Shown: piece by piece, positions 4,835 to 44,545 of the stretch | Numbering within the stretch: position 1 is the first letter of the stretch | How the letters are laid out: each line of letters starts with the position of its first letter | IMG/VR virus record: IMGVR_UViG_3300032435_000013 | Coordinates: 1 to 57,381 of that record | Length of the DNA: 57,381 nt | Reading direction: 5' to 3' (one strand) | DNA from: a virus | Lineage: Duplodnaviria; Caudoviricetes | The notes under the pieces: model-generated | Told to the model about the DNA's origin: nothing | Database searches by the model: none | Seen by the model: only the letters and a program-made list of their open reading frames with translations | Made by a program: the position numbers and the translations under genes

Positions 4835-5767
4835 ATGGAACCTAGAGGCGGCACGGAACTCCAGTTCGAGTTCATGCGTAAACGGGTTGATGCTAAGTTA
4901 TTAGATAACTTTCAAATCTGTACATCTATTCCTGGTAAAGTTCCATTAGATCCAAAGAAGATTAATATTCTTTGGCAAAAGAATTCCTACGACCAACCTA
5001 ACTTACAAGAGTTCTTTGGTAATCCAGAACGACATAAAGAATACGATTGGTATGTATTTAACTCTCATTGGAATTACGAAAAGTTTAGATACTATTTTAA
5101 GATCCCAGAAGAACGATGCATGGTTATTAAAAACGGCTGTACTAGTTTTCCAACCTTTAAACCTTATCAAAAAGGTGACCCCATTAAATTAATTTATCAC
5201 CCTACTCCATGGAGAGGCTTGAACGTGATTCTTGCTGCGATGCAATTGATCAAAGACCCCCTGATCACGTTAGATGTGTATAGTAGCTGTGATGTGTATG
5301 GCTCTGCTTTTAAGAAAGCAAATGATCATCAATATACAGAGTTATATCAACAAGCAAAAGAATTAAAGAATGTACATTATATCGGTTATAAACCCAATGA
5401 ATATATATTAGAGCATATGCAAGATTACCAAATATTTGCATACCCTAATATCTGGGAAGAAACATTTTGTATCTCGGCACTAGAAGCCATGGCAGCGGGT
5501 CTACATGTGGTGACCACGAATCACGGGGCTTTATATGAAACTTGTTCTGAGTGGCCTGTGTATGTTAATTATGTACAAGACTACAAATCCCTTGCGCAAT
5601 CTTTTGCCTATGCTATAGAATCAGCAGCAGCTTATTTACATGAAACCCATATCCAAAAGCACCTACAAGAACAACAAAAATTTTATCAACGATTTTATAA
5701 TTGGGATAAGAAAGCCCATGAATGGACTGGCTTCCTTACAGGTGCTTTAGATGCAAGACGCAAGTAA
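4835..5767 (+). CDS. Glycosyltransferase, GT4 / GT-B fold
   Basis: PRGGTE N-terminus; EETFCISALEAMAAG (EX7E) motif. Confidence 0.9.
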   Translation: MEPRGGTELQFEFMRKRVDAKLLDNFQICTSIPGKVPLDPKKINILWQKNSYDQPNLQEFFGNPERHKEYDWYVFNSHWNYEKFRYYFKIPEERCMVIKNGCTSFPTFKPYQKGDPIKLIYHPTPWRGLNVILAAMQLIKDPLITLDVYSSCDVYGSAFKKANDHQYTELYQQAKELKNVHYIGYKPNEYILEHMQDYQIFAYPNIWEETFCISALEAMAAGLHVVTTNHGALYETCSEWPVYVNYVQDYKSLAQSFAYAIESAAAYLHETHIQKHLQEQQKFYQRFYNWDKKAHEWTGFLTGALDARRK

Positions 5768-6551
5768 ACCCATTTGGTTCCATAAAGAAAAAAACAAATC
5801 TGATTTTTCTATCTTAGTTTCTACCCCTGTTCACTCAGAAGTATCTATTCATTACACACAATCTTTATTAGAATTTCAAAAGAAGTGCTTTGCAAATAAC
5901 ATTCCTGTTGCTTTTCAATTAATGAAATCTTCGTTAGTAACGCAGGGAAGAAACTTATGCGTGGCTGGATTTTTAGATACGGATTTAACTCATATGCTAT
6001 TTATTGATTCTGACATTGATTTTAATTTTGATTCTATTATTAAAATGATTAAAGCAGATAAAGAAGTTATCTCTATTCCTTATCCATTAAAGACATTTAA
6101 TTCTGAGAAAGTATTTGCTATGATGAAAGATGGTAAGATTAAAGATCATACCGATATACAAAAGAACGCATTGATGTATCCTTTAAAATTACCTAATCCA
6201 GATGATATTCAAATGAACCAAGGTATTGTAGAAGTGACTCATGCACCTACAGGGTCTATGCTTATTAAACGTTCTGTATTTGACAAGATGATTAAAGCAT
6301 ACCCAGAGATGGTAATTAAACAAGGTTCTATTATTAATGGTAAGTTAGTAGATAAACCAAATATGTGGAACTTTTTTGATACTTGGTTTGATAAAGAAAC
6401 ACATACCTACTTAGGTGAAGATTTTGCCTTCTGTAAGAGATGGACAGATATAGGCGGCAAATGCTATGCTCTAGCCTCTGATTACATTACACACATAGGA
6501 GAATACTCTTACCGTGGAAGATTACAGGATGAGTTCATTGAAACGCCGTGA
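5751..6551 (+). CDS. Glycosyltransferase, GT-A/GT2-like
   Basis: SSLVTQGRN, FIDSDI (DxD), GEDFAFC and HIG motifs. Confidence 0.85.
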   Translation: MQDASKPIWFHKEKNKSDFSILVSTPVHSEVSIHYTQSLLEFQKKCFANNIPVAFQLMKSSLVTQGRNLCVAGFLDTDLTHMLFIDSDIDFNFDSIIKMIKADKEVISIPYPLKTFNSEKVFAMMKDGKIKDHTDIQKNALMYPLKLPNPDDIQMNQGIVEVTHAPTGSMLIKRSVFDKMIKAYPEMVIKQGSIINGKLVDKPNMWNFFDTWFDKETHTYLGEDFAFCKRWTDIGGKCYALASDYITHIGEYSYRGRLQDEFIETP

Positions 6552-6613
6552 TATTGATATCTGGCGCTATACAAGCTAAAATAACATAATTAACTAGTTA
6601 TATAAATTTAATT

Positions 6614-9954: not shown

Positions 9955-12083
9955 TGGGTTTAATTAATGTTGAGGGTATAGGTCCAGTAGAAATTCAAGG
10001 AGAAAATCCTACAGAACAAGAAAGCCAAGCAATTGGTGAACTTGTAAAAAACACACCTAAGTCAAATCAACAAACTGTTACAGAGACAGATGATTTCTTA
10101 GGCTCCCCATCTTTTAAAAGATTATTACTAGAAGCTGGTTTAGCAATTGGAGGAACTGTATTATCTGGGGGTCTAGCATTACCCGCTACAGCAGCACGCG
10201 TTGGATTTTTAGCAAGACCTTTTTTAATGCAGCTAGCAAAAAGTTCTTTTGGATCTGCAGCTGGATCTGGAACAGGGGCAGCCGTTGCTCAAACATTTGA
10301 TCCAAAAGATGATGTAGTAAAAGAAGTAGTAAGAGCATCCATAGAAGGAGCTGTTGGAGAAGTTATTGGAGGACCGTTAACTATTAAAGGAGCTCAATAC
10401 GTATCTAAATTATTAGGACCAAAAATTAAATTAATTTCAATGGCGGATGAAGCTGAAAAAACATTAAAAACTCAAATCGAAAAAATAAAAGCAAGTCCTG
10501 GAAGTTATTCTGATGACATATTAAAAGCTGCAGACAATGCAGTACTAACGCCAGGTATTGTAGCAGAAAATCGTTTTATAGATATTGCTGAAAACATTGC
10601 GGAAAATTCTATACTTGGTTCTGGTTCTTTATTAACTGCAAAAGAAGCTACTAAAAAAGTAGCTTCGTCCGCCATGGATAATTTTACAGCAGATCTTATA
10701 AAAACTGCAGACAAAACAGACTTGGGTCTTTTATTTAAAGAGAATCTAACAAATAGTCAAGATTTATTTGATAGTGCGGTTAAAGGTTATTATAAAACAG
10801 TAGAAAAAAATTTAGCTAACTCTGGGTTAAAAAATTCTGCTATTGTAGATATTAAACCATTACAAAATAATTTAAAAAGTATATTAAAAGACTTACCAGG
10901 AAGAAAAACATATAAAGGTACGGTAGATTTAATTAAAGATTATGCACAAGGTCCTTCTAAAATAACTTTTGGAAGAGCAAATCAACTTCGTTCCGATATA
11001 TTAGCATTAGGAAGAGATTTATCAGCAAAAGATAATAATAAATTTAAATATGTTCAAGGTCAAATAGCTAAAGAAATAACAGAGGCTATAGATAATACAT
11101 CTGTAGGAAAAATAGGTGCAGTAAAAGATTCTTTAAAAACAGCCAATCAATTTTATAGAGAGGGTTTAAAAACATTTAATGATAAAATATTGGGTAATAT
11201 ATTATTAAAAAATCCAGATGACATATTTAATGCTATCGTATCTAGAAGTGACAAACCTTACACTGTATCTAAAACACTAGAATCTATTCAAAAATTAACA
11301 CAGATGAAGAACGTTACTGGAAAACCACTGCTAGATCAATTAGCTGCAAAAAATTTAAAAGAATCTCTTCAAGGACATTTATTAAAAGAAATGATGGACA
11401 AATCTAAAGGAACTATTGGACAATATGAAAATGTATTAAGTGCAAGTAAATTGGGTTCATTTATGGAAAAATACAAAGGAACGTTTGCTGAAAAAACAGG
11501 ACTTTTCAGCAAAAAGCAAATTGCTGAATTAGATGAATTAAAAAATCTTTTGTCTTTTTCACAAGGAGTTATTTCTAAAGAAGGAAGATTACCTGGAGGA
11601 GTATTTATTCAATTATCTCAAGCGGGGGCTATTGGAAGTTTACTAACGTTAAATGATCCCACTACTCAATTCGCTTTAGCTGCTCCTATTTTATTAGGAC
11701 CAAAAGCAATTGGACAAATGTTGATTAATCCTAAATTTAATAAATTTTTAAGAGAAGGTCTTACTGCACCTAGCGCACCAAAGGCTAGGATAGCGTTTGG
11801 TCAATTAGTAGGAAGATTAGGAGCTGCTGGTTTAATTGATGAAGAAGAATTAAATAAATCTATGACAGAATTACAACAAAGACCACAGGCACCAGATGCA
11901 ACAAAATTAAATTTAAAACCTGTAAACACACAAGTAACAAATCCAGATCAAGTTCTTTCACAAAGACCGACCGCACCAGTTTCACCTATGGCACCTATGG
12001 CACCACAACAAAACACAGGAGCTAAGTATCAGGGGCTATTCCCTTTTGACACAACAGGCCAAGCAATAGCTAGGGGACAATAA
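9954..12083 (+). CDS. Large internal virion / ejection protein
   Basis: 709 aa, helical, with Gly/Ala hydrophobic segments. Confidence 0.6.
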   Translation: MGLINVEGIGPVEIQGENPTEQESQAIGELVKNTPKSNQQTVTETDDFLGSPSFKRLLLEAGLAIGGTVLSGGLALPATAARVGFLARPFLMQLAKSSFGSAAGSGTGAAVAQTFDPKDDVVKEVVRASIEGAVGEVIGGPLTIKGAQYVSKLLGPKIKLISMADEAEKTLKTQIEKIKASPGSYSDDILKAADNAVLTPGIVAENRFIDIAENIAENSILGSGSLLTAKEATKKVASSAMDNFTADLIKTADKTDLGLLFKENLTNSQDLFDSAVKGYYKTVEKNLANSGLKNSAIVDIKPLQNNLKSILKDLPGRKTYKGTVDLIKDYAQGPSKITFGRANQLRSDILALGRDLSAKDNNKFKYVQGQIAKEITEAIDNTSVGKIGAVKDSLKTANQFYREGLKTFNDKILGNILLKNPDDIFNAIVSRSDKPYTVSKTLESIQKLTQMKNVTGKPLLDQLAAKNLKESLQGHLLKEMMDKSKGTIGQYENVLSASKLGSFMEKYKGTFAEKTGLFSKKQIAELDELKNLLSFSQGVISKEGRLPGGVFIQLSQAGAIGSLLTLNDPTTQFALAAPILLGPKAIGQMLINPKFNKFLREGLTAPSAPKARIAFGQLVGRLGAAGLIDEEELNKSMTELQQRPQAPDATKLNLKPVNTQVTNPDQVLSQRPTAPVSPMAPMAPQQNTGAKYQGLFPFDTTGQAIARGQ

Positions 12084-12319: not shown

Positions 12320-12350
12320 AGGTGAGTTGGTAATTTTAGGAGATTGTTAA

Positions 12351-14103: not shown

Positions 14104-14814
14104 ATGAAAATAATTAGAAATGATAGCAGCTTCACCATCACAGACTTTAGATGGGATCATAAATATTCTTATGTCCCTTATGAACGGGACGACACTCACG
14201 GCCCACGGACCTATGCGGTAGGAGAAAAGAAAGTCCCCTCCGTAACCACCATATTATCAGCCACTCAATCAGCAGAGAAGACAAAGACCCTAGATGCTTG
14301 GAGAGAACGAGTAGGCTACCAAGAAGCTCAAGCCATTACCACTCAGGCCTCCAATAGAGGCACGGAGATGCACTTTGTTTTAGAAAACTATATCAATGGT
14401 CGCGGGTACTTGAATCTATCAAAAGAAGGGGCTCAGGCTCGTTTAATGGCACATACCATCATACAGAATTTACCAGAGTTAAAGATTGTATACGGAAGTG
14501 AAGTGAACCTAGCTTATGAGGGTCAATGGGCAGGATCCACGGATCTCGTGGCTCTATACAAAGGAGAGCCTACTATTATAGATTTTAAACAGTCTAATCG
14601 TTTTAAGAAGAGAGAGTATGTAGAAGACTACCACTACCAGATAGCAGCTTATGCCCTTGCTCATAAAAAAGTATATGGGCCGATCACGAGAGGCCTCATA
14701 GCCATCTGTACTAAGGACATAGAGTTTCAGTCTTTTGAACTGGATGAAAATATTCTTAAAGAATATGAGGATAGGTGGTTTTCAAGAGTCGAAAAGTATT
14801 ATAAACTTCCTTAA
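14104..14814 (+). CDS. PD-(D/E)XK exonuclease (MGME1/Cas4-like phage nuclease)
   Basis: PSVTTIL, RGTEMH, AGSTD, IIDFKQS and QIAAY motifs. Confidence 0.9.
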   Translation: MKIIRNDSSFTITDFRWDHKYSYVPYERDDTHGPRTYAVGEKKVPSVTTILSATQSAEKTKTLDAWRERVGYQEAQAITTQASNRGTEMHFVLENYINGRGYLNLSKEGAQARLMAHTIIQNLPELKIVYGSEVNLAYEGQWAGSTDLVALYKGEPTIIDFKQSNRFKKREYVEDYHYQIAAYALAHKKVYGPITRGLIAICTKDIEFQSFELDENILKEYEDRWFSRVEKYYKLP

Positions 14815-20162: not shown

Positions 20163-21783
20163 AAAGATTTACCGTAAAACGGTAAAGATTTATGGGCCTC
20201 CAGGAACAGGAAAGACCACTACGCTAGTAGAGAAAGTAGTGCGTAAGTATTTAAAAAAAGGAGTAGACCCAGAACAAATAGCTTTTATATCCTTTACTAA
20301 CAAGGCAGTAGACACCGCTAGAAAGAGAACACTAGGAGCCTTTCCACAATTTTCTGAGCAACAATTTAGTAGATTTCAAACCTTACATAAATATTGCAGA
20401 CGTTACTTTAATGAAAACATCTTTGATATTAAGGAATGTATGATTGATTTTGCATTAGAAGAAACCATTATCAAGCATACTGACAAACGATTAGATGATG
20501 AGGGTTTTGTATATAAAGATTGGTCTTTATCTATTTATGATAAATCAAGAAACATGATGAGGCCTTCTATAGACGTATATAAAGAAGAGTCTTATAAAAA
20601 AGACAATATAGATCTATTTCAAAAAAAGATTACTGCCTATGAAGCGTTTAAAAGATCTAACTACAACAACCCTTTAATTGATTTTACGGATATGATTGAG
20701 AGAGCTATTGACGAAGTAAGCTTCCCACCGATTGAAGTATTAATACTAGATGAAGCCCAAGACTTTACTCCCTTGCAATGGTCAGTCATCTATAAGATCG
20801 TAGAAAATGTAAAGAGAGTATATCTAGCAGGGGATGATGATCAGGCTATTTATAAATGGAATGGTGCAGACCCTAAATATTTTACCACTTATTTTCCTGG
20901 TAGGAAAGTAGTATTACGTCAAACGTATCGCTTTGGCTCTAATATTCATAACTTTTCACAAATGATTAGAAAAGACATTACCGATAGTATTGAGAAAGAT
21001 TTTAGGTTTAATCCTAATAAAACAGGAGCGGTTAAACGCTATCTGTCCTTTATGGAAATTGATTTCTCCAAGTATCACGGCTCATGGTTCTTTTTAGCTA
21101 GAGTAAACAGAGTAGTTAACCAACTACGTATGCTGGCTAAAAAAGAGGGTTTTTATTTTTCAGATAATAAAGGAAACAAATCTTTTAATGCTAATGAATG
21201 GTTAGCTATTAGAGCATGGACAGCGTTAACTAAAGGTAAAGCTATTAATAAGAAAGAAGCACAGATGGTTTTTAAATACATAAGAGAACTTAAAAACCCT
21301 AGCTTTAGAGAAGATTTGTTTTGGAAAGATCAATCAGAGTACACCAAATATACTTTAGACTACTTAACACAAGAATGTGGATTAGATATGCCTGATGATA
21401 TGAAGACTAAAACATGGATGCATGTTTTAAATAGAAATTTTATACCTAGCCGTAAATTATATTTTGTTAGTTTATTAAAACGCTACGGACAGAAGACTTT
21501 AGAGGAAGACCCTAAGATTATTATAGACACCATTCATTCCGTTAAAGGAGACGAAGCAGATCATGTATTATTATTTAATAGATGTGATTACGCCTCAGAC
21601 TATAACAGGAAGAATAAACAGGAACGAATAGATGAGAACAGAGTTATCTACACGGCTGTCACTAGAGCTATAGATAGTGTACATATTCTTTACTCTACTG
21701 ATCGTTATTACTACCCAATAGGGAAACATTATTTAACTTACCAACAGGAGAAAATATACAATGACCGATCCAAACATGTTTAA
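20119..21783 (+). CDS. UvrD/Rep superfamily-1 DNA helicase
   Basis: GPPGTGKT, DEAQD, GDDDQAIY, TIHSVKGDE and YTAVTRA motifs. Confidence 0.93.
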   Translation: MMHTTRENLEALKLKKIYRKTVKIYGPPGTGKTTTLVEKVVRKYLKKGVDPEQIAFISFTNKAVDTARKRTLGAFPQFSEQQFSRFQTLHKYCRRYFNENIFDIKECMIDFALEETIIKHTDKRLDDEGFVYKDWSLSIYDKSRNMMRPSIDVYKEESYKKDNIDLFQKKITAYEAFKRSNYNNPLIDFTDMIERAIDEVSFPPIEVLILDEAQDFTPLQWSVIYKIVENVKRVYLAGDDDQAIYKWNGADPKYFTTYFPGRKVVLRQTYRFGSNIHNFSQMIRKDITDSIEKDFRFNPNKTGAVKRYLSFMEIDFSKYHGSWFFLARVNRVVNQLRMLAKKEGFYFSDNKGNKSFNANEWLAIRAWTALTKGKAINKKEAQMVFKYIRELKNPSFREDLFWKDQSEYTKYTLDYLTQECGLDMPDDMKTKTWMHVLNRNFIPSRKLYFVSLLKRYGQKTLEEDPKIIIDTIHSVKGDEADHVLLFNRCDYASDYNRKNKQERIDENRVIYTAVTRAIDSVHILYSTDRYYYPIGKHYLTYQQEKIYNDRSKHV

Positions 21784-23172: not shown

Positions 23173-25040
23173 CAGGTTTACAATTATCCATGACGTTTAA
23201 GAAAAGTATCTGGTCTACTCCATCAGAGTATAAAGATTTATCGGGATACAACGAAATAGCCATTGACTTAGAAACAAGAGATGATGCCATCTCCGATAAA
23301 TTAGGTGCGGGTTGGGCAACAGGGAAAGGAGAAGTAATTGGTTTTGCTGTAGCCGTAGAGGGTTGGCAAGCGTATTACCCCTTCAATCATTTTGGTGGTG
23401 GGAATATGATATATGAACAAGTCATTAAATATATGAATGATGTTTGTGCATTACCCGCTACAAAAATATTTCATAATGCTCAGTACGATGTAGGTTGGTT
23501 GCGTAACATGGGTATTAAAATTAATGGAGAAATTGTAGATACCATGATTGCAGCAGCCATCATTGATGAAAATCGTTGGTCATATTCTTTAAACAATGTG
23601 GCACGTGATTATTTAGGAGAGATTAAAGCGGAAACAGATTTGAATGAGGCCGCTAAAGATCATGGCGTTGACCCTAAATCTGAAATGTGGAAATTACCAA
23701 GTGAACATGTAGGGTTTTATGCGGAACAAGATGCACGGCTCACGTACCTATTATGGCAAAGATTTAAACACGAAATTAAAACTCAAAGTTTAGAAACAGT
23801 TTGGGAATTAGAATGTAAGTTACTCCCTAATTTAATTAAGATGAGAGAACGAGGAGTTAGAGTAGATGTAGAAAAAGCAGAGAAATTAAAAAAAGAATTT
23901 AGTGATCAAGAGAAAGTAAAATTGTCAGAAATAAAACAATTAATAGGCAAGGATATAGATATTTGGGCGGCAAGACAGATAGGAGAAGCTTTCGATAAAT
24001 TAAAAATCGAATACCCAAGAACTGAAAAAACTGGAGAGCCTTCATTTACTCAAAACTGGTTGCATAACTCCAAGCATAGGATATCTAAATTAATTGTACA
24101 AGCCCGCGAAATTAACAAGTTTCATAATACATTTTTGCAAGGCATATTAAAATACGAACACAAAGGAAGAGTGCACGCAGAGATTAATCAATTAAGATCA
24201 GACAATGGTGGGACTGTTTCAGGAAGATTAAGTATGTCCAATCCTAATTTACAACAATTACCCGCTAGAAATAAGGAATTTGGCCCAAAAATTAGAAGTT
24301 TATTCTTACCAGAAGAGGGAAGTAAGTGGGGTTCTTTTGATTATTCACAACAAGAACCAAGAATGGTAGTCCACTATGCGGCTTCTATTGGTGATGGTTA
24401 TGAAGGCTCTCAAGAATTAGTTGCCGCTTATGAAAATGCTTCAGCGGATTTTCATCAAACAGTTGCAGATCTTTGTGGTATTGAACGAACTCAAGCCAAA
24501 ACTATTGGTTTAGGTTTAATGTATGGAATGGGAAAAAATAAATTATCTTCTAGTTTAGGTTTATCTAAAGAGGATGCCGATGTATTAATTTCTAAATACA
24601 ATCGTAAAGTACCCTTTGTTAAAATGTTATCTGATCGTTGTATGAAAAAGGCAAATGATGACGGTGTGATCAGAACTAAAAAAGGTAGAAAATGTCGTTT
24701 TGACAAATGGGAAACTAAAGATTGGGGTTTACATATAGCAGACACAGAAGAAAATATTAGAGCCAAATACGGTAAAGATAATATGAAGAGAGCTTATACC
24801 TACAAAGCACTTAATCGTTTAATACAGGGATCAGCCGCAGATCAAACTAAACAAGCTATTGTATCTTGTGCAGAAGCAGGACACTTACCTATTCTTCAAA
24901 TTCACGATGAATTATGTTTTAATATTACAGATGAACATCAAGCTAAAGAAATAAAAAGCATCATGGAAAATTGCATGGAATTTAAAGTTCCTAGTGTAGT
25001 AGATGTTTCTATAGGGGATAACTTTGGACAAGCTAGTTAA
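23169..25040 (+). CDS. polA: DNA polymerase family A with 3'-5' exonuclease domain
   Basis: DLET, HNAQYD, YAEQD; GRLSMSNPNLQQ, DYSQQEPR, KTIGLGLMYG, IQGSAAD, IHDEL. Confidence 0.97.
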   Translation: MTGLQLSMTFKKSIWSTPSEYKDLSGYNEIAIDLETRDDAISDKLGAGWATGKGEVIGFAVAVEGWQAYYPFNHFGGGNMIYEQVIKYMNDVCALPATKIFHNAQYDVGWLRNMGIKINGEIVDTMIAAAIIDENRWSYSLNNVARDYLGEIKAETDLNEAAKDHGVDPKSEMWKLPSEHVGFYAEQDARLTYLLWQRFKHEIKTQSLETVWELECKLLPNLIKMRERGVRVDVEKAEKLKKEFSDQEKVKLSEIKQLIGKDIDIWAARQIGEAFDKLKIEYPRTEKTGEPSFTQNWLHNSKHRISKLIVQAREINKFHNTFLQGILKYEHKGRVHAEINQLRSDNGGTVSGRLSMSNPNLQQLPARNKEFGPKIRSLFLPEEGSKWGSFDYSQQEPRMVVHYAASIGDGYEGSQELVAAYENASADFHQTVADLCGIERTQAKTIGLGLMYGMGKNKLSSSLGLSKEDADVLISKYNRKVPFVKMLSDRCMKKANDDGVIRTKKGRKCRFDKWETKDWGLHIADTEENIRAKYGKDNMKRAYTYKALNRLIQGSAADQTKQAIVSCAEAGHLPILQIHDELCFNITDEHQAKEIKSIMENCMEFKVPSVVDVSIGDNFGQAS

Positions 25041-27442: not shown

Positions 27443-30400
27443 TTAATGTCTAGTGGTATCTAACTTACTGAATTTAAAAGTGTAAAAGTTTTCCATAATA
27501 TGTTCAAATAAAGCAATTACTTTTTTCTTCTTCCACCCTTTGCTAATATGGAAATTTAAATAAGCATACAGCTTAATTAATCGTTCCCTATTAGCGTCTT
27601 TACTCAAACTCATACACACTTCTACATCTTCCATAGTAAATTTATTCATTTCTCAGTTCCTTATAGTTGTTAAATGCTTGCTCTATGGCTTTTTGTTCAT
27701 CTTCTGTATAATATGCGTCTTTATCCTTATTTGGTATGGATATTCCATCTATATTAACTTTGTAAACTGTAAATTCTTTTGAATATTTACCATTACGGTT
27801 CCACCTTATCTCTGGCCTTACTGTTATTATCACGGTTTCATGTTCTTCCACTCTTTGTATCGTTCATTCCAAGATCGTTCAAATTTGAGCACCCAGAATG
27901 TCTTAAAACGCTGTTTTAAAGTGGGTTTGTGGCCGTAATAATCCACCTCATACCACCTAGAATTCATATAGTGCAGAAAATTGTCTATTATCTTCATTAT
28001 CATTGTTCCTCCTTGCTGTTAAAATGTTTTGTATGGTTTGTAGTTTTAAGGCCGTTTGGGCGTGTTCCTTTAGCCGTACAACTACTTGCCTGTGTGTGTA
28101 TTTTTTAGTAAATGCACCATGCCCAAAGGCTATTTCGTAGCACTCGTCCATGAACATTTTGTTGCGGGTCTTGTTGCTTATGTTCTGCTGTGACGACACA
28201 CGGATCACGGCTCTAGGCTTTTTTATCACTAAAAAAATCACTCCTTTCTTTTGAACAAAAGTACAATATCACAGCCGTTCCTTTATACAACAGGTTTTTT
28301 TCCTCTGTTGTTTGCATTAATTTATGTTCGGCCTCCTTGCAAGATAAAGTGGTTTTTATCTCGTGTACTGAACCCGTAATCAGCCAAATATAAACAAATA
28401 TTATTTCCACTTACGAGCTATTTCTTTCAATGTAACCGATATGTCTTCTATCGTTAAATTCAAATCAATTAACTCCATTCGTATTTCTTCTTGTGTTTGG
28501 TGCATAGTTTTGTCTTCTGTACCGCCTCGCATAGCAGTTGAGATTAACTCAAGCTGTTCTTTGATTTGGTTTATTCTCATTTCGTCCATCATTCTTTATC
28601 CTCCTTATTTTGGTTTCTAGAAATACAGTTCTAGTTTTTAGTTTTGCATTTTTTGCTCTCAAGTATTTTATTATGGCAGTTAAGCGTATAATAATGACAT
28701 TGAAATTTTTACCTATCATTTCAAATAGTATTTATCTCTCAACTGTTGTTTTACTTTAGCCCAAAAATTCTTTGCCCATTCAGTTGTGGCCATCATATGA
28801 GCCATACTTGCTTTTGTATATCTACATACTGGACACAACTTACCTATGCAATGATTTCCTGTGTTCATATTAACTCCTTTTGTTTAACTCGTCCGTCTTT
28901 AGTTCTTTCTACATCTTGCCATTTACATTGAATGGTCGTTTTGCCTGTATCACACCATATAACAATGTCGTGTCCATAGGGCTTAGTGTATATCCAATGT
29001 TTTTGATAGGTCGGTAAAACAATAATGGTCATGCTACCTCTTGTTCTACAAAGCAGAAATACTTGTCTTCGTTTTTATGAAACACCTTACTTTTATCTTC
29101 TAAAGAATTTCTGATAAAATCATACAGCTCTCTACCTTGTTCAGTATCATTTCCGCAATTTTCTTCTTTGTTCCAAAATACTAATCTACTTTCTTCTTTG
29201 GGGTGTGCTTGTATGTAATCAAAAAAAATATAGTCAGCTAGTTCCATAACTTGTTCGTTACTTTCAATATCTTTTTGTTTAACTTTTTTTATTTTATTAT
29301 TAATCCAATTGATCATTCTTTTTCCTCCTCTATTTCTACTACCATTGGAAATCCGTCCACTTGCCAACTGTCGTAGCATTGTTTTTCTATGTCATCTAAG
29401 CATAGGCTGTTTGCCTTGTCCAACGCCTCTTCTTCACTCGTTGCCCCTATGGCTATTTTATAAGCGGTACTCGTACTCATGGTTATGTCGTATATTTTCA
29501 TGTTACTTTCCTTTCTGTTTATTCTTCGTGAATTGAATAGCTGAATTTGTCAGGTAAAAACGACATCTTAAAACTATCAATATATTTTATTAATTCATAA
29601 AAAGTATAAAATGTTTTTTTGTTACCTTTTTCATCAGTTATTATTATGTAATTGTTCATGCTACCTCCATTGGTTTGATATGTTGTAAATCATCATATAA
29701 AGAACACCATTCATAAAATGATTTTTCTTGTGCCTCATGGTCGTTGTAACCCCATTGAGTATCAAAGTGTTCATCATCACTCCGTAAATTATCAAACTCT
29801 TGTCTTGCTTGGTCTTCTGTCATTTAATTTCCTCCACCTCTGGTGCAATAGAGCCTAAGTCTAAGCCTTCTAAAGCGTCCCAAATGGCAGTTGTTTCATC
29901 TTCGGCCTCTACTACAAATTCTTCGTGTATGACTACTTTATATTTAGGCATGGTCTTCCTCCGTTGTTAGTTTTTCTAATAGTTCGTGCATTAAATCATA
30001 ACCCATTAATTCATTGGTTAAAGAATGGTCGCCACTTGTATTTGGCGGAACATCTTTTAATGAGCCGTTGTTATATACATTTACCTCAGCAACCGATTTT
30101 AAATGAGAGTTTAAAAACTGAATTAAGTTCAATCTTGTTGCGTGGTACTGTATCCATTTATCCCTCATTTAGTTTCTTCCTTTCTGTTATTGTTTTCTGT
30201 TCTGTCCCAAATTTCTATAAATCTTTTCAACCAATTTGATTGAGTTATAGTTAGGTCAGGCGTTCCTAGTAATACCTCGTCAGCACTAAATTTCTCTAGT
30301 TTATTTTTATCGATCCATTTAATATAAATTTCTGATAATTTACTTAAGGGTGTCATTTTTTTTCTTTCTGCTGTTTAAGTAATCTTTCGTATTTTGTTCT

Positions 30401-31137: not shown

Positions 31138-31938
31138 GAATAAGTCATTGATTTTAAAGGATAAAAACTTATCCACACAACTTGGGGTTGTAAGTAACTT
31201 ATTTTGTTCTCGTGAGTCGTGCCTCTGAGAAAACATAACTCACGAGAGTAGAAAGGGCAGTCATTTATGCAAATGAATGTAGAATAATAATAAGGTATTA
31301 GGGTGCATATGTCAAATGTTATTTTAGGCTATACAACTGTTGCGTGAATTTATGGCATATTGTGTGAACGGGATAAGAACGATACAAGAACATTGGTTTT
31401 TGGGGTGTGGGTAAAGTTTCGGGTATCACGGATCACGGATCACGGGTTTTCCTAGTTTTCCTAGTTTGCTGGGAAAATTCCCAGAAGTTTCCTAGTTTTT
31501 TTAAAAAAGTAGGACAAATAAGTTATTGATTTTAAAGCGTTTTCCTAGTTTTTCCTGAAACTACCCCCTATAAGGCACTTCCTTAGAAACTTTTTTTAAA
31601 AAAGATGAAATCCTAGATTTAAGACACATTGTCGCAGTTTCATGAATAAGTCATTGATTTTAAAGGATAAAAGAGCATTTTCAAAGTAGGAAAATACTAG
31701 GAAAATTCCTAGTATTTCAGGAAAGTGTTGATTAGCAAGGGTCATTTAGGTGTGACACTTTGTCAACTCTGGGAAAACATAGGTAAATCAACAGTTATTT
31801 ATTGTAACAATTAGTAATATTTAGTGTAAGGGGCTTTAATCAACAGTTATTTAATCTCTTACTTCGGCAAATATACAAAAATAAAAAATATTTTTTTAAT
31901 TTCTATAGATTGCCTATAAAACTAGGAAACTAGGAAAA
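31138..31938. other. Putative replication origin / packaging control region
   Basis: Non-coding. Perfect DnaA box TTATCCACA at 31169-31177; IHF-consensus sites at 31141, 31519, 31647; 29-bp direct repeat 31138-31166/31644-31672; many TTTCCTAG/CTAGGAAA iterons; TCACGG(A) x3 at 31426-31446. Confidence 0.65.
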
Positions 31939-31965: not shown

Positions 31966-32478
31966 ATGACAAAAAAAAGAAATGTCGTTAAAACAACTGC
32001 TGACCTAACACCTAAACAACGAAAGTTTGTTGATGTACTTGTGGCCAACTGGGGTCAAATGTCCAAAGCAGACGCTTGTGTTGAGGCGGGGTTTACTGCA
32101 CCTGTTGGAAAAAAACCTTATGAAATGGGAAGTAGATTAACTAATCCTGAATTAAATCCACATGTTTGTAGATACTTAGAAAAAAGATTATCACAAGAAT
32201 TACAAAAATATGAAACAGATAAATTAAGAAATTATAAAGTTTTTGAAAAATTGCGAGATGGTGCTGAAAGTAAAAACCAATATAACGCCTCTATCAACGC
32301 CCAAAAAAACATTGTACAAATGTCGGGTCAATTGATTGCTAAATCGGAAATCATGCACTCTACTATTGACGGAATGAACCGAGAACAGTTAGAAAAACGA
32401 TTAACCGAGCTAGAGGACAAGCTAAGTGAAAACAAATCGATTATTGACATTACGCCAGAAAAAATTGTTACAGAGTAA
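31966..32478 (+). CDS. terS: Terminase small subunit
   Basis: LTPKQRKFV..., A...AG., G.RL.NP...PHV HTH pattern; C-terminal IIDITP. Confidence 0.8.
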   Translation: MTKKRNVVKTTADLTPKQRKFVDVLVANWGQMSKADACVEAGFTAPVGKKPYEMGSRLTNPELNPHVCRYLEKRLSQELQKYETDKLRNYKVFEKLRDGAESKNQYNASINAQKNIVQMSGQLIAKSEIMHSTIDGMNREQLEKRLTELEDKLSENKSIIDITPEKIVTE

Positions 32479-34832: not shown

Positions 34833-35534
34833 TTAAATGTTAATTACAAACCCGCTATTGTCTTTTTTTGCTTTACCTTTAGCAATCAATCCAACAATCG
34901 AATTTTTCGGGTCTAAAAAACGCAAATCGTTTAAATCCCCGTTTATTACTTTACGGCCTAAATAAGTTTTAGGCAGTTTATTAAAAACAACCGCAATATT
35001 TTGTTTCGTGGTCATTATTAGTTCTTGTATTTCGTTGTCGTTGCTTTCACTTTTTGAAAATGTCAATTGATAATTTTTCGGTAAAGCGTCCTTCAATCTA
35101 TTCTTAATTTTCGTATAATCATGAAAATCAATTGTAGGGTTATTGTCCATTAAACTCAAACCATTCTCTAATCTATACCGTTCAAACGGTAAATCGCTAG
35201 TCCCATTTAAACGAACATTTAATTTTAAATTTAAAGCCGTTGCCCGTTTATAGTAGTTTTTTATTTCTCTATCTAATTGTTTCAAAAATTTAACTCTATC
35301 TTGTAAAAAGTATTTTGTTTTATTTAAGCGGGACAGCTTCACGCTATCAAATACACCCCGCCCGCTTAAATTTAAACAGCTTGCAATGCACCCCTTGCTT
35401 GCCTTTGGACATATATTCACACCGCTTAATTTATAGGGTGCTAAATATAATATAACCGACAAATAACCAAACTTGACCGATTTTTGCATTTTGTAATTAT
35501 CAAATCTTAAAAGTTTTTGCACGGGTTTATACAT
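34833..35534 (-). CDS. Gp88-like protein (Cys-triad, radical-SAM-like enzyme)
   Basis: CPKASKGCIASC, RLNGTSD, DYTK, GD.NDLRFLD, GL.AKG motifs; start taken at MYKPV. Confidence 0.7.
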   Translation of the reverse strand: MYKPVQKLLRFDNYKMQKSVKFGYLSVILYLAPYKLSGVNICPKASKGCIASCLNLSGRGVFDSVKLSRLNKTKYFLQDRVKFLKQLDREIKNYYKRATALNLKLNVRLNGTSDLPFERYRLENGLSLMDNNPTIDFHDYTKIKNRLKDALPKNYQLTFSKSESNDNEIQELIMTTKQNIAVVFNKLPKTYLGRKVINGDLNDLRFLDPKNSIVGLIAKGKAKKDNSGFVINI

Positions 35535-38875: not shown

Positions 38876-38921
38876 GTGTCCGTTGACTTGATAAATACAC
38901 GCTTAAATTGTATTGATAAGC

Positions 38922-39323
38922 ATGGCAAAAAACAAAGAATCTCTATTGTTTAAGAGAATTAAAACAGCATTAAAAACCGCCTACCTATTAAGAATTGAGA
39001 CATCAACGGTCAAAGGCGTAGCTGATGTTTTTTGTATTTATAAACGCTGTTCTTTTTGGGTTGAATTAAAAGCAAACGACAGCAAGAATTTACAGCTAGG
39101 CGGGTTTCAATTGAATTGGCACGACACCATCAATAAACACGGCGGTCACTCGTTTATCTTAGTAAAGACCATCGGGCAACGAGGTCTTAAAATCTACAGC
39201 GTTGAGGGTAGAGGCGTGAAGTTTTTACACCAATACACCGACACGGCGGGCGGGTTGGTTGAAGCGTTCCAATTCATGCAAGGCCACACCCTCGGGCTTC
39301 AAGGTCATAATATAAAAACCTAG
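38922..39323 (+). CDS. VRR-NUC-like nuclease / resolvase
   Basis: ES.L, RIE....GVADV, FWVELK, Q..WH motifs. Confidence 0.8.
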   Translation: MAKNKESLLFKRIKTALKTAYLLRIETSTVKGVADVFCIYKRCSFWVELKANDSKNLQLGGFQLNWHDTINKHGGHSFILVKTIGQRGLKIYSVEGRGVKFLHQYTDTAGGLVEAFQFMQGHTLGLQGHNIKT

Positions 39324-39328
39324 TGAAT

Positions 39329-39486
39329 TGATTATCACTAGCGATAATCATTACTTATCACTAGGGATAATCTCGCACAATCTAACATACCCACGAGGGT
39401 AGAGGCGTGACCCTTGAGGCCTGAGCCACGAGCCGAAGCTCTAAGGGTCATTTGAGGGTTGACCTTATGTTTGCCTTATTTCTGCC
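39329..39486. promoter_or_regulatory. Palindrome/repeat cluster upstream of terL
   Basis: Two TTATCACTAGNGATAA palindromes, a 16-bp direct repeat, a hairpin and an ACC/GCC/GCC 11-bp-period repeat. Confidence 0.55.
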
Positions 39487-39569: not shown

Positions 39570-41066
39570 ATGGTTTTAGAAAAAAAGGGGCCCATCCAAA
39601 AAGACCTATTATCCACTGATCAATTAAGACTTGAGGTGGAAAAAAAACTCATTGAGCATATTAAACTTTGCCAAGATAATTTTTTATATTTTGTTCAAGA
39701 GGTCTGGCCTGATTTTATTTGTAGAAAAGAAAAGGACCCAAATAAATGGGGGCACCATCAAATCATGGCTAAAGAGTTTACTCGTATATCTGATCAGAGA
39801 AAAGGGAGGCTTATTGTGAATATGCCACCTAGGCACACTAAAAGCGAATTTGCTTCTGTGTTCTACCCAGCATGGATGATTGGAAGGAACCCTAAATTAA
39901 AAATTATGCAGGTAACGCACAATGCCGAACTATCTGCTAGATTTGGTTCTAAGGTTCGTAACTTAATTGACTCTAGAGAATATAAACAAATTTTTGGAGA
40001 TGTCCGTTTACGACAAGACTCTAAAGCAAAGGGACGTTGGGAAACAAATCATGGTGGTGAATATTTTGCTGCTGGTGTAGGAGGCGCAATCACAGGGCGT
40101 GGTGCGGATTTGTTAATCATTGACGATCCACATACCGAACAAGATTCTTTATCTCGTAATGCTATGGAGAGATGTTATGATTGGTATGCATCAGGACCCA
40201 GACAACGTTTACAACCTGGAGGCTCTATTGTTTTAGTTATGACGAGATGGGCAGAGAATGATTTAACGGGGACCCTCATTAGAAATCAGAAGGAAGAAAA
40301 AGCAGACAAGTGGAAGTTAATTTCTTTTCCTGCAATCTTAGAATCAGGGAACCCTTTGTGGCCAGAATTTTGGGAGAAATCTGAATTAGAAAAAGTCAAA
40401 GCATCGTTACCCATTCGTAACTGGTCTGCACAGTATATGCAGAACCCCACTTCAGAAGAAGGAGCTATCATCAAAAGAGACTGGTGGAGACCTTGGAAAA
40501 AAGATGTACCCGCATTACAGCATGTTATACAAAGTTACGATACCGCATTCAGTGCAAAAGAGACTGCCGACTATTCTGCTATTACTACGTGGGGGGTATT
40601 CTATCCTCAAGAAGGCGGGGCGGCTAATCTTATGTTGTTAGATGCAATGAAAGGTAAATATGATTTTCCTGAATTAAAAAATCTGGCATTTGATCAATAT
40701 AAATTTTGGGAACCTGAATCTGTAATCATTGAGGCTAAAGCATCAGGAGAACCGTTGATGCAAGAATTTAGAAGAATGGGAATACCAGTAATACCTTTTG
40801 TTCCTAGTAAAGGAAAAGATAAACATACTAGAGTTAATGCTACTGCACCCTTATTTGAATCAGGGTCCATATGGTATCCAGAAGGAGAACGCTTTGCAGA
40901 TGAGGTTATTGAGGAATGTGCTGCCTTTCCTCATGGTCAATATGATGACTATGTTGATAGTACTACCCAAGCCGTGTTAAGATACAGGCAAGGTAACTTC
41001 TTTGATGTAAGCTCCGACTACAAGGACAACTCAAATAAGTACAAAAAAGAATATAAATACTATTAA
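39570..41066 (+). CDS. terL: Terminase large subunit
   Basis: MPPRHTKSE, IIDDPH, MTRW, YMQNP, SYDTA, DYSA, DDYVDS motifs. Confidence 0.95.
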   Translation: MVLEKKGPIQKDLLSTDQLRLEVEKKLIEHIKLCQDNFLYFVQEVWPDFICRKEKDPNKWGHHQIMAKEFTRISDQRKGRLIVNMPPRHTKSEFASVFYPAWMIGRNPKLKIMQVTHNAELSARFGSKVRNLIDSREYKQIFGDVRLRQDSKAKGRWETNHGGEYFAAGVGGAITGRGADLLIIDDPHTEQDSLSRNAMERCYDWYASGPRQRLQPGGSIVLVMTRWAENDLTGTLIRNQKEEKADKWKLISFPAILESGNPLWPEFWEKSELEKVKASLPIRNWSAQYMQNPTSEEGAIIKRDWWRPWKKDVPALQHVIQSYDTAFSAKETADYSAITTWGVFYPQEGGAANLMLLDAMKGKYDFPELKNLAFDQYKFWEPESVIIEAKASGEPLMQEFRRMGIPVIPFVPSKGKDKHTRVNATAPLFESGSIWYPEGERFADEVIEECAAFPHGQYDDYVDSTTQAVLRYRQGNFFDVSSDYKDNSNKYKKEYKYY

Positions 41067-41706: not shown

Positions 41707-42174
41707 ATGGCAAAAAAAAGTATGAGAAATCTTGCAAAAGTTGCGGCAGGATTAGGAGCGGCCTATGCTCTATCTAAAATGGGTAAAGGAACTATGGATG
41801 GAACAGAAGGTGACTTCCCAGCTTCATCAGTAGACAAATCTTCACCAGTATCTAAAGGATCTTCACCAGTATCTAAAGGATCTTCACCAGTATCTAAAGG
41901 AACTATGGATGGAACAGAAGGCGACATGCCCTTTGTAGCTAAACCAAAAAGAGGAAGCGTAGAAGCATTTAGACAAGCTGAATCTGAAAGACAAGCTAGA
42001 ATATCAGCAAGGAGAAGTGGACAAACTAGGAGAACCGATGGGTCCGCATTTAATGCAAAAATAAAAGCAACCAATGCAGCTAGACAAGGAATGAAAAACC
42101 CAAGATACAATAAGGGTGGATCTGTTCACGTTAAAACAAAAATAGGATATAGTAAACCAACAAAGATTTGCTAA
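41707..42174 (+). CDS. Low-complexity basic virion-associated protein with internal repeats
   Basis: AAGGAG RBS; SSPVSKG x3. Confidence 0.7.
   Translation: MAKKSMRNLAKVAAGLGAAYALSKMGKGTMDGTEGDFPASSVDKSSPVSKGSSPVSKGSSPVSKGTMDGTEGDMPFVAKPKRGSVEAFRQAESERQARISARRSGQTRRTDGSAFNAKIKATNAARQGMKNPRYNKGGSVHVKTKIGYSKPTKIC
41839..41901 (+). repeat. 3 x 21-bp perfect tandem repeat; a 27-bp duplication lies at 41784-41810/41895-41921
   Basis: TCTTCACCAGTATCTAAAGGA x3. Confidence 0.95.
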
Positions 42175-42175
42175 T

Positions 42176-44545
42176 ATGGCGGAAGTCGACAACAACAATG
42201 AACTTCCTGTAGAGGAAGTTGAATCGGAAGAGGTTGACGTAGAATTACCAGAAGATGTGCAAGACCAAGTTGAAGAACTTGGTGCGGCTATTGATGAACA
42301 GGTAGAATTCTACGACAACTTAGCGGAAGACATGGATGAGCGTACGCTTGGGCGTATGGCATCGCAGTTAGTTGAAGACTATCGTAAAGATAAAGTCTCA
42401 AGATCCGATTGGGAAAAAACATATACACAAGGTTTAGAATTACTAGGTTTTAAATACAGCGATCAAACTCGTCCTTTTGCTGGAGCAAGTGGTGTTACTC
42501 ACCCCTTACTAGCAGAAGCGGTTACACAATTTCAAGCACAAGCTTATAAAGAACTACTACCCTCCGATGGCCCTGTACGTACTCAAGTTGTTGGAGCAGA
42601 AACACCAGATACAAAACAACAAGCAGAACGTGTAGAAGATTTTATGAACTACATGTTAATGGAAAAGATGGAAGAGTACACTCCAGACTTTGACCAGTTA
42701 TTATTTTATTTACCTTTAGCAGGATCTGCATTTAAGAAAATTTATTACGATGGGTTAAAACAAAGAGCTGTTTCTAAATTTGTTCCAGCAGAAGATTTAG
42801 TAGTTCCTTATTACGCAACCGATTTAATGGATTGCGAACGAATTGTTCATTTAGTTAAAATGAGCGAGAATGATATTCTTAAAAAACAAAAATCAGGATT
42901 CTATAGAGACGTAGAATTATTACAAAAATCTACTCAACAAAATACTATCCAAGATAAACTAAACGAATTAGAAGGGGTGAAGCCTACTGCAGATATGGAA
43001 ACGCAGTTTAATATTTTAGAGATGCATGTAGATTTAAGTTTAGAAGACTTTGAAAAAGACGGAAGACCTAAACCAGATGAAAAAGAAGTTAAGGTTCCTT
43101 ACATTGTAACCATTGATGAAGGTTCTCAAGAGATACTTTCCATCTACCGTAACTATGCACCAGAGGATGAATTAAAAAAACGCAAAGAATACTTTGTGCA
43201 TTTTAAATTTTTACCAGGATTAGGCTTTTATGGCTTTGGATTAATCCATATGATCGGCGGATTAAGTAGATCTGCCACTACTGCATTAAGACAATTGTTA
43301 GATGCAGGTACTTTGGCTAACTTACCAGCGGGATTCAAGAGCCGTGGAATTAGAATCAGGGATGATGACCAACCGTTCCAGCCAGGAGAGTTTAGAGATG
43401 TAGACGCACCAGGCGGAAACATTAGAGACCAGTTTCAATTATTACCGTTTAAAGAACCTTCACAAACTTTATTTCAACTAATGGGCTTTTGCGTACAAGC
43501 AGGACAAAGATTCGCTGCAATTGCTGACATGCAAATGGGAGAAGATTCACAAAACAGAGCCGTGGGCACAACGATCGCACTCTTGGAGCGTGGTTCGAGG
43601 GTCATGAGCGCTATTCATAAGCGTTGTTACTACGCTATGCGACAAGAATTTAGACTACTGGCAAAAGTATTCGCAGATTATCTACCCCCTGTGTACCCTT
43701 ATTCTGTGTATAACGCAGACCGTGCAGTAAAAGTTGCAGATTTTGACGACCGCGTAGATGTCATTCCAGTTGCCGACCCTAATATCATGAGTATGGCACA
43801 ACGAGTAACGTTAGCGAATGAAAATTTAAAGATCGCTATGTCTGCTCCACAAATGCACAACTTGAGAGAAGCTTATTCTAGAGTATACGAAGCATTAGGA
43901 ACTAAAAATATTGATTCTTTGTTGTACCCTGACAAACAACCTACCCCTGAAGATCCAGGAACCGAGAACGCTAAGGCTTTGAAGATGGAATTGTTAAAAG
44001 CATTTCCAGACCAGGATCACGATGCACATATCACGGCTCACGGAACTTTCATTCAGTCACGAATGGTACAGATGAACCCTATGGTGTATGCATTATTGCA
44101 AGGACACATTAGTGATCACATTGCGATGCAAGCTCATGGAGAAGTAGGAGCATTAATTCAACAAGATCCAGAGATGCAAGCGATGAACCAACAAGATCCA
44201 GACGGATTTAAAGTGTTATTTAATTCTATGGTTGCAAAACGAGTTGCTGAACTAACTAAAATGTTAATTGAAGCCGAAGGCGGACCGCAACAAGATCCTT
44301 TAGTAGCGTTGAAACAAAGAGAACTGGATTTAAAAGCATTAGACATTCAAAGAAGAGCCAATGAATCTCAAGAAGACATGCAAAGAAAAGAAGGTGAGTT
44401 TGATGAGAAGATTGATTTTGAGAAAATGAAATTAGAACAACAAGAAGAACAAGCTGCGGCTAGAATTAGAGTAGCCAATGAGAAAATTAATGTTGCAAGA
44501 GAAAAAAATAAACAAGCGTTTGCCCAAAAGCCAAAAGCAAACTAA
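42176..44545 (+). CDS. Portal protein
   Basis: 789 aa after terL; HPLLAEAVTQFQA, GFYGFGLIH, DAGTL.NLP motifs; coiled-coil barrel C-terminus. Confidence 0.88.
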   Translation: MAEVDNNNELPVEEVESEEVDVELPEDVQDQVEELGAAIDEQVEFYDNLAEDMDERTLGRMASQLVEDYRKDKVSRSDWEKTYTQGLELLGFKYSDQTRPFAGASGVTHPLLAEAVTQFQAQAYKELLPSDGPVRTQVVGAETPDTKQQAERVEDFMNYMLMEKMEEYTPDFDQLLFYLPLAGSAFKKIYYDGLKQRAVSKFVPAEDLVVPYYATDLMDCERIVHLVKMSENDILKKQKSGFYRDVELLQKSTQQNTIQDKLNELEGVKPTADMETQFNILEMHVDLSLEDFEKDGRPKPDEKEVKVPYIVTIDEGSQEILSIYRNYAPEDELKKRKEYFVHFKFLPGLGFYGFGLIHMIGGLSRSATTALRQLLDAGTLANLPAGFKSRGIRIRDDDQPFQPGEFRDVDAPGGNIRDQFQLLPFKEPSQTLFQLMGFCVQAGQRFAAIADMQMGEDSQNRAVGTTIALLERGSRVMSAIHKRCYYAMRQEFRLLAKVFADYLPPVYPYSVYNADRAVKVADFDDRVDVIPVADPNIMSMAQRVTLANENLKIAMSAPQMHNLREAYSRVYEALGTKNIDSLLYPDKQPTPEDPGTENAKALKMELLKAFPDQDHDAHITAHGTFIQSRMVQMNPMVYALLQGHISDHIAMQAHGEVGALIQQDPEMQAMNQQDPDGFKVLFNSMVAKRVAELTKMLIEAEGGPQQDPLVALKQRELDLKALDIQRRANESQEDMQRKEGEFDEKIDFEKMKLEQQEEQAAARIRVANEKINVAREKNKQAFAQKPKAN

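Follow-up and report, generated by a model that had tools for sequence, protein, structure and literature searches.

CACGG heptads of one polarity, reversed between the terminase genes, in a freshwater relative of the SAR11 phage HTVC023P

Ter (Tus/RTP), KOPS/SRS and Chi are dispersed, oriented short sequences that lie in two opposed domains converging on one locus, and that keep their orientation even as individual positions come and go. The omega repressor of plasmid pSM19035 binds operators made of tandem heptads, with a consensus that shares ATCAC with the ATCACGG unit treated here, and the satellite phage P4 has two-part ori and crr regions. Here we describe a tandem heptad motif, CACGGnn, in IMG/VR record IMGVR_UViG_3300032435_000013 (hereafter the window: the whole virus record, a single contig of 57,381 bases), the genome of a freshwater phage related to HTVC023P, a phage of SAR11. 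The motif is scattered predominantly along one strand, stands in its strongest form 5′ of the small-terminase gene terS, and is reversed between terS and the large-terminase gene terL. To our knowledge, nothing is known about DNA recognition and packaging in these phages. The polar pattern with its flip at the packaging genes is common to the whole phage family and apparently undescribed; we found nothing in print. In the literature covered, including the main texts of two papers on this phage group, PMC9599517 and bioRxiv 10.1101/2019.12.14.876532, we found no description of the motif or of a polar layout, and a term search of these two main texts gave no mention of motifs, promoters or genome ends.

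Among packaging systems, the pac site of SPP1 carries three sets of direct repeats over promoters and the start of terS (PMC4737164). The present phage resembles SPP1 and SF6 in having a homologous small terminase beside the heptads (family profile against SF6 chains, E ~1e-5) and short direct repeats just 5′ of terS, in some relatives within the terS start; it differs in that the repeats are sharp 7-bp heptads, in opposed sets 0.7–8 kb apart, with further copies of one polarity over tens of kb. A second comparison is with the nick sites of T5, phiKMV-like phages and phage tf, tailed phages in which a short one-strand consensus is scattered regardless of gene orientation; for tf, 14 nicks are described, all in the top strand, at 5′-TACT/RTGMC-3′ (PMC3517423). 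By contrast, the sites described here are tandem heptads with arrays beside the terminase genes and a strand reversal from terS to terL, and no nickase for them was identified. Like Ter, KOPS and Chi, the heptads are short, dispersed and oriented, in two opposed domains converging on one locus; unlike them, they belong to a 57-kb phage and converge on terS rather than on a replication terminus or dif, and no Tus-, FtsK- or RecC-like reader was found here. With the omega operators they share 7-bp units in tandem, direct and inverted, and the ATCAC core, whereas in this phage no ribbon-helix-helix protein was identified and copies lie inside genes throughout the genome.

Heptads in the window and their excess over chance

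The repeating unit is a 7-bp heptad whose family-wide form is (C/A)ACG(G/A)NN, arranged in twos and threes (14–21 bp); in the window, ATCACGG itself occurs ten times on the + strand and once on the − strand. Perfect copies of CACGGNNCACGG number five, all on + (14197, 28199, 31427, 31434 and 44032), and allowing up to one mismatch raises the counts to nine on + and one on −, the added + copies being at 5515, 12397, 21076 and 23734 and the − copy at 45807. The first-pass annotation of this DNA, made by eye, had listed seven copies on the + strand, and all seven lie where it placed them, the one at 31427 being ATCACGG three times over; it had missed the one-mismatch copies at 12397 (+) and 45807 (−). 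Its statement that the − strand holds no perfect copy is right for CACGGNNCACGG, and what it described as a two-mismatch copy near 31211 proved to be the inverted dyad CACGACTCACGA of Table 1, which matches CACGRNNCACGR perfectly.

That the motif should be rare by chance, as had also been claimed, was borne out by several null models. The observed counts were reached in none of 100 dinucleotide shuffles, which averaged 0.00 perfect copies and 0.29 within one mismatch. For coding DNA we used 200 synonymous-codon shuffles that held proteins, codon usage and intergenic DNA fixed: on the + strand 0.05 perfect copies and 0.49 within one mismatch were expected against 3 and 7 observed (Poisson P 9e-7 for the latter), and on the − strand 0.06 against 1. 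The 14-fold + excess is not a product of coding composition. The codon-shuffle null alone favours + over − by about 8:1, however, so the strand asymmetry comes partly from coding composition, and strand bias in this single genome is therefore weaker evidence than the excess itself. A three-heptad score requiring at least 12 of 15 fixed bases gave ten matches at seven loci on + and none on −, where a third-order Markov null gave 0.13 and 0.03, and CACGG-N2-CACGG came second when every 5-mer direct dyad with a gap of 0–12 was scanned without bias. The top-ranked dyad of that scan, TGGGG-N10-TGGGG, is a coding W-G peptide repeat unrelated to the heptads; TGGGG recurs every 15 nt at 2615–2650 and 54671–54775, as W-G repeats of pentapeptide spacing in two virion proteins.

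The copies begin at codon positions 3, 2, 1, 1, 2 and 3 in six + genes, one lies antisense in a − gene and one in non-coding DNA; because all three codon phases, a − gene and non-coding DNA are occupied, the signal is one of DNA, as the first-pass annotation had proposed. A peptide-level origin is ruled out by the three codon phases and the differing peptides. A sense-strand or RNA-level signal is ruled out by the antisense copy at 28199, by relatives that keep the global strand in oppositely oriented genes, by copies antisense to + genes on the short arc from terS to terL (e.g., in relative G002) and by the lack of any Rfam match in the window, which also has no tRNAs. It is hardly credible that the copies arose by chance or as a coding by-product of amino-acid and codon usage on the coding strand. 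The eightfold lean of the codon-shuffle null towards + is what such an origin would give, and one-mismatch copies in high-GC relatives fall partly within conserved peptide motifs (T-I-H-G in the helicase, Q-G-S-R in the portal), where some may indeed be by-products; the window encodes both peptides without the motif. A by-product origin is already contradicted by the coding counts, by the occupation of three codon phases and of non-coding DNA, and by the near-perfect flip from + to − at terS in 71 non-redundant loci described below.

The strongest site, a perfect triple, lies 540 nt upstream of terS inside a 729-nt non-coding gap (31237–31965), with the inverted dyad CACGACTCACGA ~205 nt to its left, within the first codons of the − gene 30727–31236; a similar divergent pair is found upstream of terS in relative G005. 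A degenerate − strand array lies in the gap between the resolvase-like small-nuclease gene and terL. Each of the scattered window dyads has a third, degenerate unit behind it (CTAGG, CTATG or CTTTn), and relatives have heptad runs such as CGCGGAT CACGGGT CAAGGGC. Among the successive gaps between the sites at 5515, 12397, 14197 and 21076, two are nearly equal (6882 nt and 6879 nt), possibly by coincidence.

Opposed polarity domains around terS and terL

The link to the packaging genes extends well beyond the window. An IMG/VR scan for three CACGG heptads returned at least 123 loci, and when eight window proteins encoded at 29–34 kb were compared with them, only TerS matched among the matches listed, at 17 loci with 25–62% identity; in 12 of these 17 listed loci the heptads lie 360–1400 nt 5′ of terS, in the same orientation as terS. 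Equivalent sites in the relatives lie 260–830 nt upstream of terS; dyads are found there at −259 to −650, and also inside terS, at +73, in G003 and G005. IMG/VR contains more than 541 TerS relatives; for a survey of polarity, 80 fetched TerS loci were reduced to 71 clusters at 95% terS identity, terS was set to +, and dyads matching MACGRNNMACGR were counted. Upstream of terS there were 48 on + and 1 on −, and between terS and terL 1 on + and 53 on − (Fisher P 4e-27); beyond terL there were 2 and 1. The reversed pattern, used as a control in the same loci, gave 12 matches in all and no upstream/downstream strand split.

Whole genomes gave the same picture. Counting loci within one mismatch of CACGGNNCACGG in eight of them (the window, HTVC023P, the relatives G001–G003, G006 and G007, and DSL-LC04), we found 74 on + and 11 on − along the long arc, and none on + and 13 on − along the short arc from terS to terL; the window contributes 8 and 1 on its long arc, and its strand is reversed between terS and terL as in the rest of the family. 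Relative G004 was left out of this count because the region is duplicated at its ends, with slight differences between the copies, and adding it changes the ratios to 88:17 and 1:18. That 67,995-base contig (L137–L140) carries the terS-plus-array region twice, in slightly different versions offset by ~63.6 kb, and is probably an assembly of mixed strains exceeding one genome length. Two opposed heptad groups thus flank a convergence point, in a layout like that of Tus–Ter. The strand polarity announced by the first-pass annotation is therefore real in that the motif is directional, keeps its strand in the minority-strand genes of relatives and flips at landmarks, but it is not uniform along the genome, being divided into two opposed domains.

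Arrays larger than that of the window precede terL, at the equivalent position and in the same direction, in G002, G003, G004 and DSL-LC04, and low-GC relatives have − strand sites at the 3′ end of their homologue of window ORF 38913–39323. In G002 the genes of the short arc are almost all on + and the heptad sites on −, and relatives keep the global heptad strand inside SNF2 and exonuclease genes of the opposite orientation. A compositional asymmetry of the replication type was also rejected, as GC skew shows no flip in the terS–terL arc when the genes of the arc are on +. Heptad polarity is independent of gene orientation and of GC skew.

A natural break in synteny bears on which genes the sites accompany. 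In the window, − strand blocks are inserted on both sides of terS, and the triple is still with terS and the inverted array still with the resolvase gene and terL. The blocks (27443–31236 and 32422–36847) consist of small genes, encode DUF3846, DUF6915 and GP88-family proteins, and are absent from most relatives, in which terS directly follows the homologue of ORF 26604–27074; an ArdC-like anti-restriction gene lies just outside them, at 37045–37995. This break tells against the heptads being replication origin elements, that is, iterons for a phage initiator or primase-helicase in a bipartite arrangement like P4 ori and crr, with the scattered copies as weak sites for the initiator or for priming along one template strand, since the sites stay with terS and terL and not with the replication genes. 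Such a role would suit the co-occurrence of the motif with the replication module, and the gap upstream of terS does contain A/T tracts and TTTCCTAG repeats in both orientations; against it, no initiator was identified, GC skew is unchanged at the polarity boundaries, and a gp34-like protein of the replication region gave only weak SSB-like fold matches. We regard an origin function as quite improbable, and although the first-pass annotation had called the region at 31.2–32.0 kb origin-like, nothing in the analysis shows an origin there.

The repeats in that gap deserve separate mention. Between 31446 and 31940 there are at least eight TTTCCTAG / CTAGGAAA repeats in both orientations, two copies of TTTTTTTAAAAAAG, and a 29-nt repeat with a third copy at 31138; the equivalent gap of HTVC023P (11.6–11.8 kb) also has CTAGGAAA repeats. 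The TTTCCTAG / CTAGGAAA repeats are possibly a second repeat system, separate from the heptads and regulatory or origin-related.

The two opposed domains raise another possibility, namely that the heptads are polar barriers or attenuators of a Tus–Ter- or Chi-like kind, read by a phage protein, with opposed sets converging on the terminase cut or a replication end. A fork or helicase-nuclease leaving the convergence point would then be stopped or modified, and the scattered copies would be back-up barriers. Such a role would account for the strongest sites being innermost, for a polarity that follows neither gene orientation nor GC skew, and for the concentration of sites in the 10 kb adjoining terS in G001–G003; positions that turn over while number and direction are kept are as expected of a density-dependent signal, and the motif co-occurs with the UvrD-like helicase, the PD-(D/E)XK exonuclease and the SNF2 helicase. 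On the other side, no terminator-type or Chi-reading protein was identified, and multi-heptad arrays right beside terL are not explained by a barrier alone. The heptad is unlikely to be a host Chi (RecBCD/AddAB), judging by the phage genomes, because the same heptad is shared by phages whose GC content runs from 29% to 59%, a spread that implies widely differing hosts. On balance we think a barrier role unlikely. Two opposed domains that meet at terS would be accounted for just as well by a polar barrier or attenuator acting on a fork or nuclease that leaves the pac cut, or by a guidance signal towards pac, as by the packaging-linked role discussed below.

Table 1. Heptad sites of the window and the genes to which they are linked
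Feature	Coordinates	Strand	Remarks
terS, small terminase	31966..32478	+	170 aa; SF6/SPP1-type N-terminal helix-turn-helix; candidate heptad reader
Small PD-(D/E)XK nuclease	38913..39323	+	136 aa; Holliday-junction-resolvase fold; − strand heptads at or just past its 3′ end in window and relatives
terL, large terminase	39570..41066	+	
Strongest site, three perfect ATCACGG heptads	31425..31445	+	CACGG at 31427, 31434 and 31441; three-heptad score 15/15
Inverted partner dyad CACGACTCACGA	31210..31221	−	Perfect match to CACGRNNCACGR; 0.03 expected
Degenerate array of ~6–7 heptads, CGTGGCT CAGGCCT CAAGGGT CACGCCT CTACCCT CGTGGGT	39389..39437	−	Three-heptad score 11/15; 0.2 expected genome-wide on −
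Dispersed dyad CACGAATCACGG	5515..5526	+	Glycosyltransferase gene; starts at codon position 3
Dispersed site CAGGGAT CACGGCC CTAGGAA	12397..12417	+	46 nt into ORF 12351–14072; codon position 2
Dispersed site CACGGCC CACGGAC CTATGCG	14197..14217	+	PD-(D/E)XK exonuclease gene; codon position 1
Dispersed dyad CACGGCTCATGG	21076..21087	+	UvrD-like helicase gene; codon position 1; weakened to CACGGCTCTTGG in L143
Dispersed dyad CACGGCTCACGT	23734..23745	+	DNA polymerase A gene; codon position 2
Dispersed site CACGGAT CACGGCT CTAGGCT	28199..28219	+	Antisense in − gene 27957–28241
Dispersed site of four heptads, CACGATG CACATAT CACGGCT CACGG	44018..44043	+	Portal gene; perfect dyad at codon position 3
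Weak single copy AACGGGCAACGG	35237..35248	−	Between terS and terL; pattern MACGRNNMACGR, 0.35 expected in all; polarity as expected for the terS–terL arc
One-mismatch copy CTCGGACCACGG	45807..45818	−	May be chance; codon-shuffle expectation on − 0.06

Candidate readers and a possible role in packaging

We tentatively favour a reading, with a probability of roughly 0.4, in which the heptads are packaging-linked cis sites read by the SF6/SPP1-type TerS and oriented relative to pac. It is the best single reading because the linkage survives the insertions around terS and because TerS is homologous to the SF6/SPP1 protein G1P. The family profile of TerS matches the SF6 small-terminase chains 4zc3, 3zqp and 2cmp at E 1e-5 to 3e-5, and the HTVC023P homologue, gp21, is annotated as terS; with Pfam Terminase_2 (PF03592), the window protein scores 17.3 bits, below the cut-off of 26.1, and that of relative G001 27.7 bits, above it. 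The heptad motif would be one member of a family-wide set of cis-acting sites around the packaging genes, comprising a strong site a few hundred bases 5′ of terS and pointing to it, an inverted site or array at the end of the resolvase-like gene or just before terL, and weaker copies scattered across the remaining genome that share the direction of the terS-proximal site. The heptads would be contacted by adjacent DNA-binding domains within one oligomeric phage protein, most probably the small terminase; the two opposed sets would bracket pac, the place where the terminase begins packaging, and the scattered copies, as secondary sites, would owe their common orientation to the direction in which packaging proceeds from pac. 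What we infer here, beyond the observed pattern, is which protein binds, where pac lies and what role the scattered copies have.

Several points weigh against this proposal. According to PMC4737164, adjacent helix-turn-helix motifs of solved small-terminase rings are spaced by about one turn of DNA, and pac DNA is bound by the SF6 domain with little sequence specificity; because of this ring spacing and low specificity, a 7-bp period and a sharp consensus are a poor fit to TerS–pac binding. The repeats are not confined to a pac-like region, as seven + loci in addition to the strongest site lie 3.8 to 45 kb from terS, and homology leaves these scattered copies unexplained because a classical pac needs no copies tens of kb off. 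The helix-turn-helix region of TerS varies considerably among phages with CACGG heptads, and one TerS with P-L, as in HTVC027P, instead of P-H still lies near a CACGG triple. Motif-positive genomes have this TerS together with the whole replication module (exonuclease, SNF2, gp33- and gp34-like proteins, primase, UvrD and PolA), so co-occurrence does not single TerS out. Separately, matching the type of heptad to TerS residues gave no clean correspondence.

Other readers were sought among the 84 ORFs of the window, phage ORFs only, with Pfam at E ≤ 1e-3. At that threshold no ParB-like domain, of the sort named in the first-pass annotation, was found among them, nor any FtsK/SpoIIIE family; no ribbon-helix-helix family was found either, although small proteins of this type are easily missed and many of the small ORFs have no family. 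The gp33- and gp34-like proteins matched only their own families in a protein atlas, and the structure model of the gp34-like protein had no fold match at E ≤ 1e-3. The small nuclease, which adjoins the inverted sites, has an invariant E9 E29 D38 E51 K53 and a structure model of pLDDT 84.8 whose fold matches archaeal Hjc (E 2e-4), VRR-NUC and RecU; 60 distinct homologous sequences occur among the fetched IMG/VR loci (tblastn E ≤ 1e-8), and PHROGs names the family 'DNA helicase' or 'endonuclease'. Judged by its modelled fold, it is probably a debranching enzyme for packaging rather than a site-specific nickase.

This nuclease matters for a reading in which a phage nickase would cut one strand at each heptad site, giving interruptions like those in virion DNA of T5, phiKMV-like phages and phage tf. 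The one-strand short consensus across genes of both orientations does recall phage tf, and the conserved nuclease gene beside the inverted sites is a candidate; it was rejected as the nickase since its fold is that of a Holliday-junction resolvase, the modelled relationship to Hjc, VRR-NUC and RecU suggesting a structure-specific rather than a sequence-specific enzyme. Moreover, no homologue of it was found in the high-GC motif-positive genomes (tblastn E ≤ 1e-4), polarity reverses between terS and terL, and the nick consensuses known from PMC3517423 are single sequences and not tandem heptad arrays. We consider nicking distinctly improbable.

Very improbable, too, is that the heptads are operators of a phage transcription factor, for instance a ribbon-helix-helix protein like the omega repressor, that controls the terS and terL operons. 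The 7-bp period in direct and inverted order and the strong sites in promoter-like gaps 5′ of both genes would suit it; yet the terL-proximal array is antisense to terL where the terS-proximal site is sense to terS, seven of the window copies lie deep within genes, and the Pfam search returned no protein of the required family, with the caveat on small proteins given above.

The first-pass annotation had suggested a Chi/KOPS-like, primase, packaging or ejection-motor site, and of these mechanisms packaging is, as far as sequence goes, the best linked, by the triple before terS and the inverted array before terL. A bolder and unlikely version would make the heptads the family's own genome-wide polarity code, oriented to the terminase cut, by which a phage factor halts a fork or helicase-nuclease leaving pac or steers a translocase towards it. 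If true, these phages would have in this code their own equivalent of Ter, Chi or KOPS, one that marks phage DNA as 'self' and coordinates replication, end protection and packaging. Sharply defined, oriented and tied to terS and terL, the heptads offer a practical way in to the pac site and the direction of packaging; they may also point to a type of polar DNA signal that is new in viruses, their pattern could serve as a signature to orient or classify metagenomic genomes of the family, and it is directly testable with a cultured member and purified TerS.

Variation among relatives and other features of the record

In the alignments of relatives, site positions turn over while number and direction are kept. 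Conservation in orthologues, which the first-pass annotation had raised, is found at close range for the exonuclease-gene site at 14197: all 12 of its 12 bases are kept in the closest relative, L143, where local identity is 78%, and HTVC023P has CTCGGCTCACGG, a partial match, at the orthologous place despite differing amino acids. Strict positional conservation of this site is absent, in that relatives of ~65% identity lack it, their site lying outside the gene, 177 nt 5′ of it. In three alignable cases the window is without the motif where distant relatives have it.

Among the high-GC relatives G001–G005 (50–59% GC), copies within one mismatch number 4/16, 8/15, 10/20, 21/18 and 7/19 on the forward/reverse strands, against 1–4 per strand for the reversed-pattern control. 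Of the low-GC relatives, G006 has 4 copies, G007 has 3, and G008–G010 have none matching CACGR; in loci of this last clade the units before terS are AACGGAC or ACCGGAC, and those after it AACGAGR. In HTVC023P one site lies 262 nt 5′ of terS, and three more are found elsewhere. HTVC027P, whose TerS is only 30% identical, has no CACGG dyad; GCTTGnn heptad arrays adjoin its terS at 16.5–17.7 kb, with 16 perfect dyads on + and 1 on − where 0.02 are expected. These arrays (L003) comprise ~20 units in three blocks, 16506–16631, 17396–17428 and 17719–17737, next to an inverted terS, and since a GCTTGnn block overlaps the annotated gp32, that gene may be a mis-call. The cultured relatives Caulobacter phage RW, CRP-901, Pag-Yong1 and QDWS535, which have the terL, portal and capsid genes in common with this family and lack this TerS, have motif counts like those of controls.

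The portal protein of the window shares 70% identity with the portal of Pelagibacter phage HTVC023P and 52% with the HTVC027P portal, and the gene order is the same in all three. Virion genes are followed by the glycosyltransferase, the PD-(D/E)XK exonuclease and the replication genes (SNF2 helicase on the − strand, gp33- and gp34-like proteins, primase, UvrD-like helicase and DNA polymerase A), and then by small genes, terS, the small nuclease, terL, the portal gene (42176–44545) and head and tail genes. Public runs with window DNA (n = 23) are freshwater, salt-lake and estuary metagenomes; strains nearly identical over 12000–31999 occur in such metagenomes from 2017–2022, and the named relatives are marine SAR11 phages. 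The runs were present as assembled contigs, in which molecule ends and nicks are invisible. Over 12000–31999, four contig runs gave ~593 variant positions, and none of the 40 listed falls in the motif. A megablast of 30000–34000 against the phage collection gave no match. Metagenome contigs also show several insertion/deletion variants relative to the window, e.g., at 15332–15629 and 21985–22517.

Three further features of the record lie away from the heptads. Coding 141-nt tandem repeats occur at both ends (5–408 and 56961–57381), with ORFs open at each, and a single repeat-rich virion gene probably continues across the point at which a circular or permuted assembly was arbitrarily opened. 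Three perfect copies of a 21-nt tandem repeat lie at 41838–41901 within ORF 41707–42174, just 5′ of the portal gene. Adjoining the exonuclease gene, at 14814–15353, is an S-adenosylmethionine decarboxylase-like gene (Pfam AdoMet_dc, E 9e-16), an auxiliary metabolic gene.

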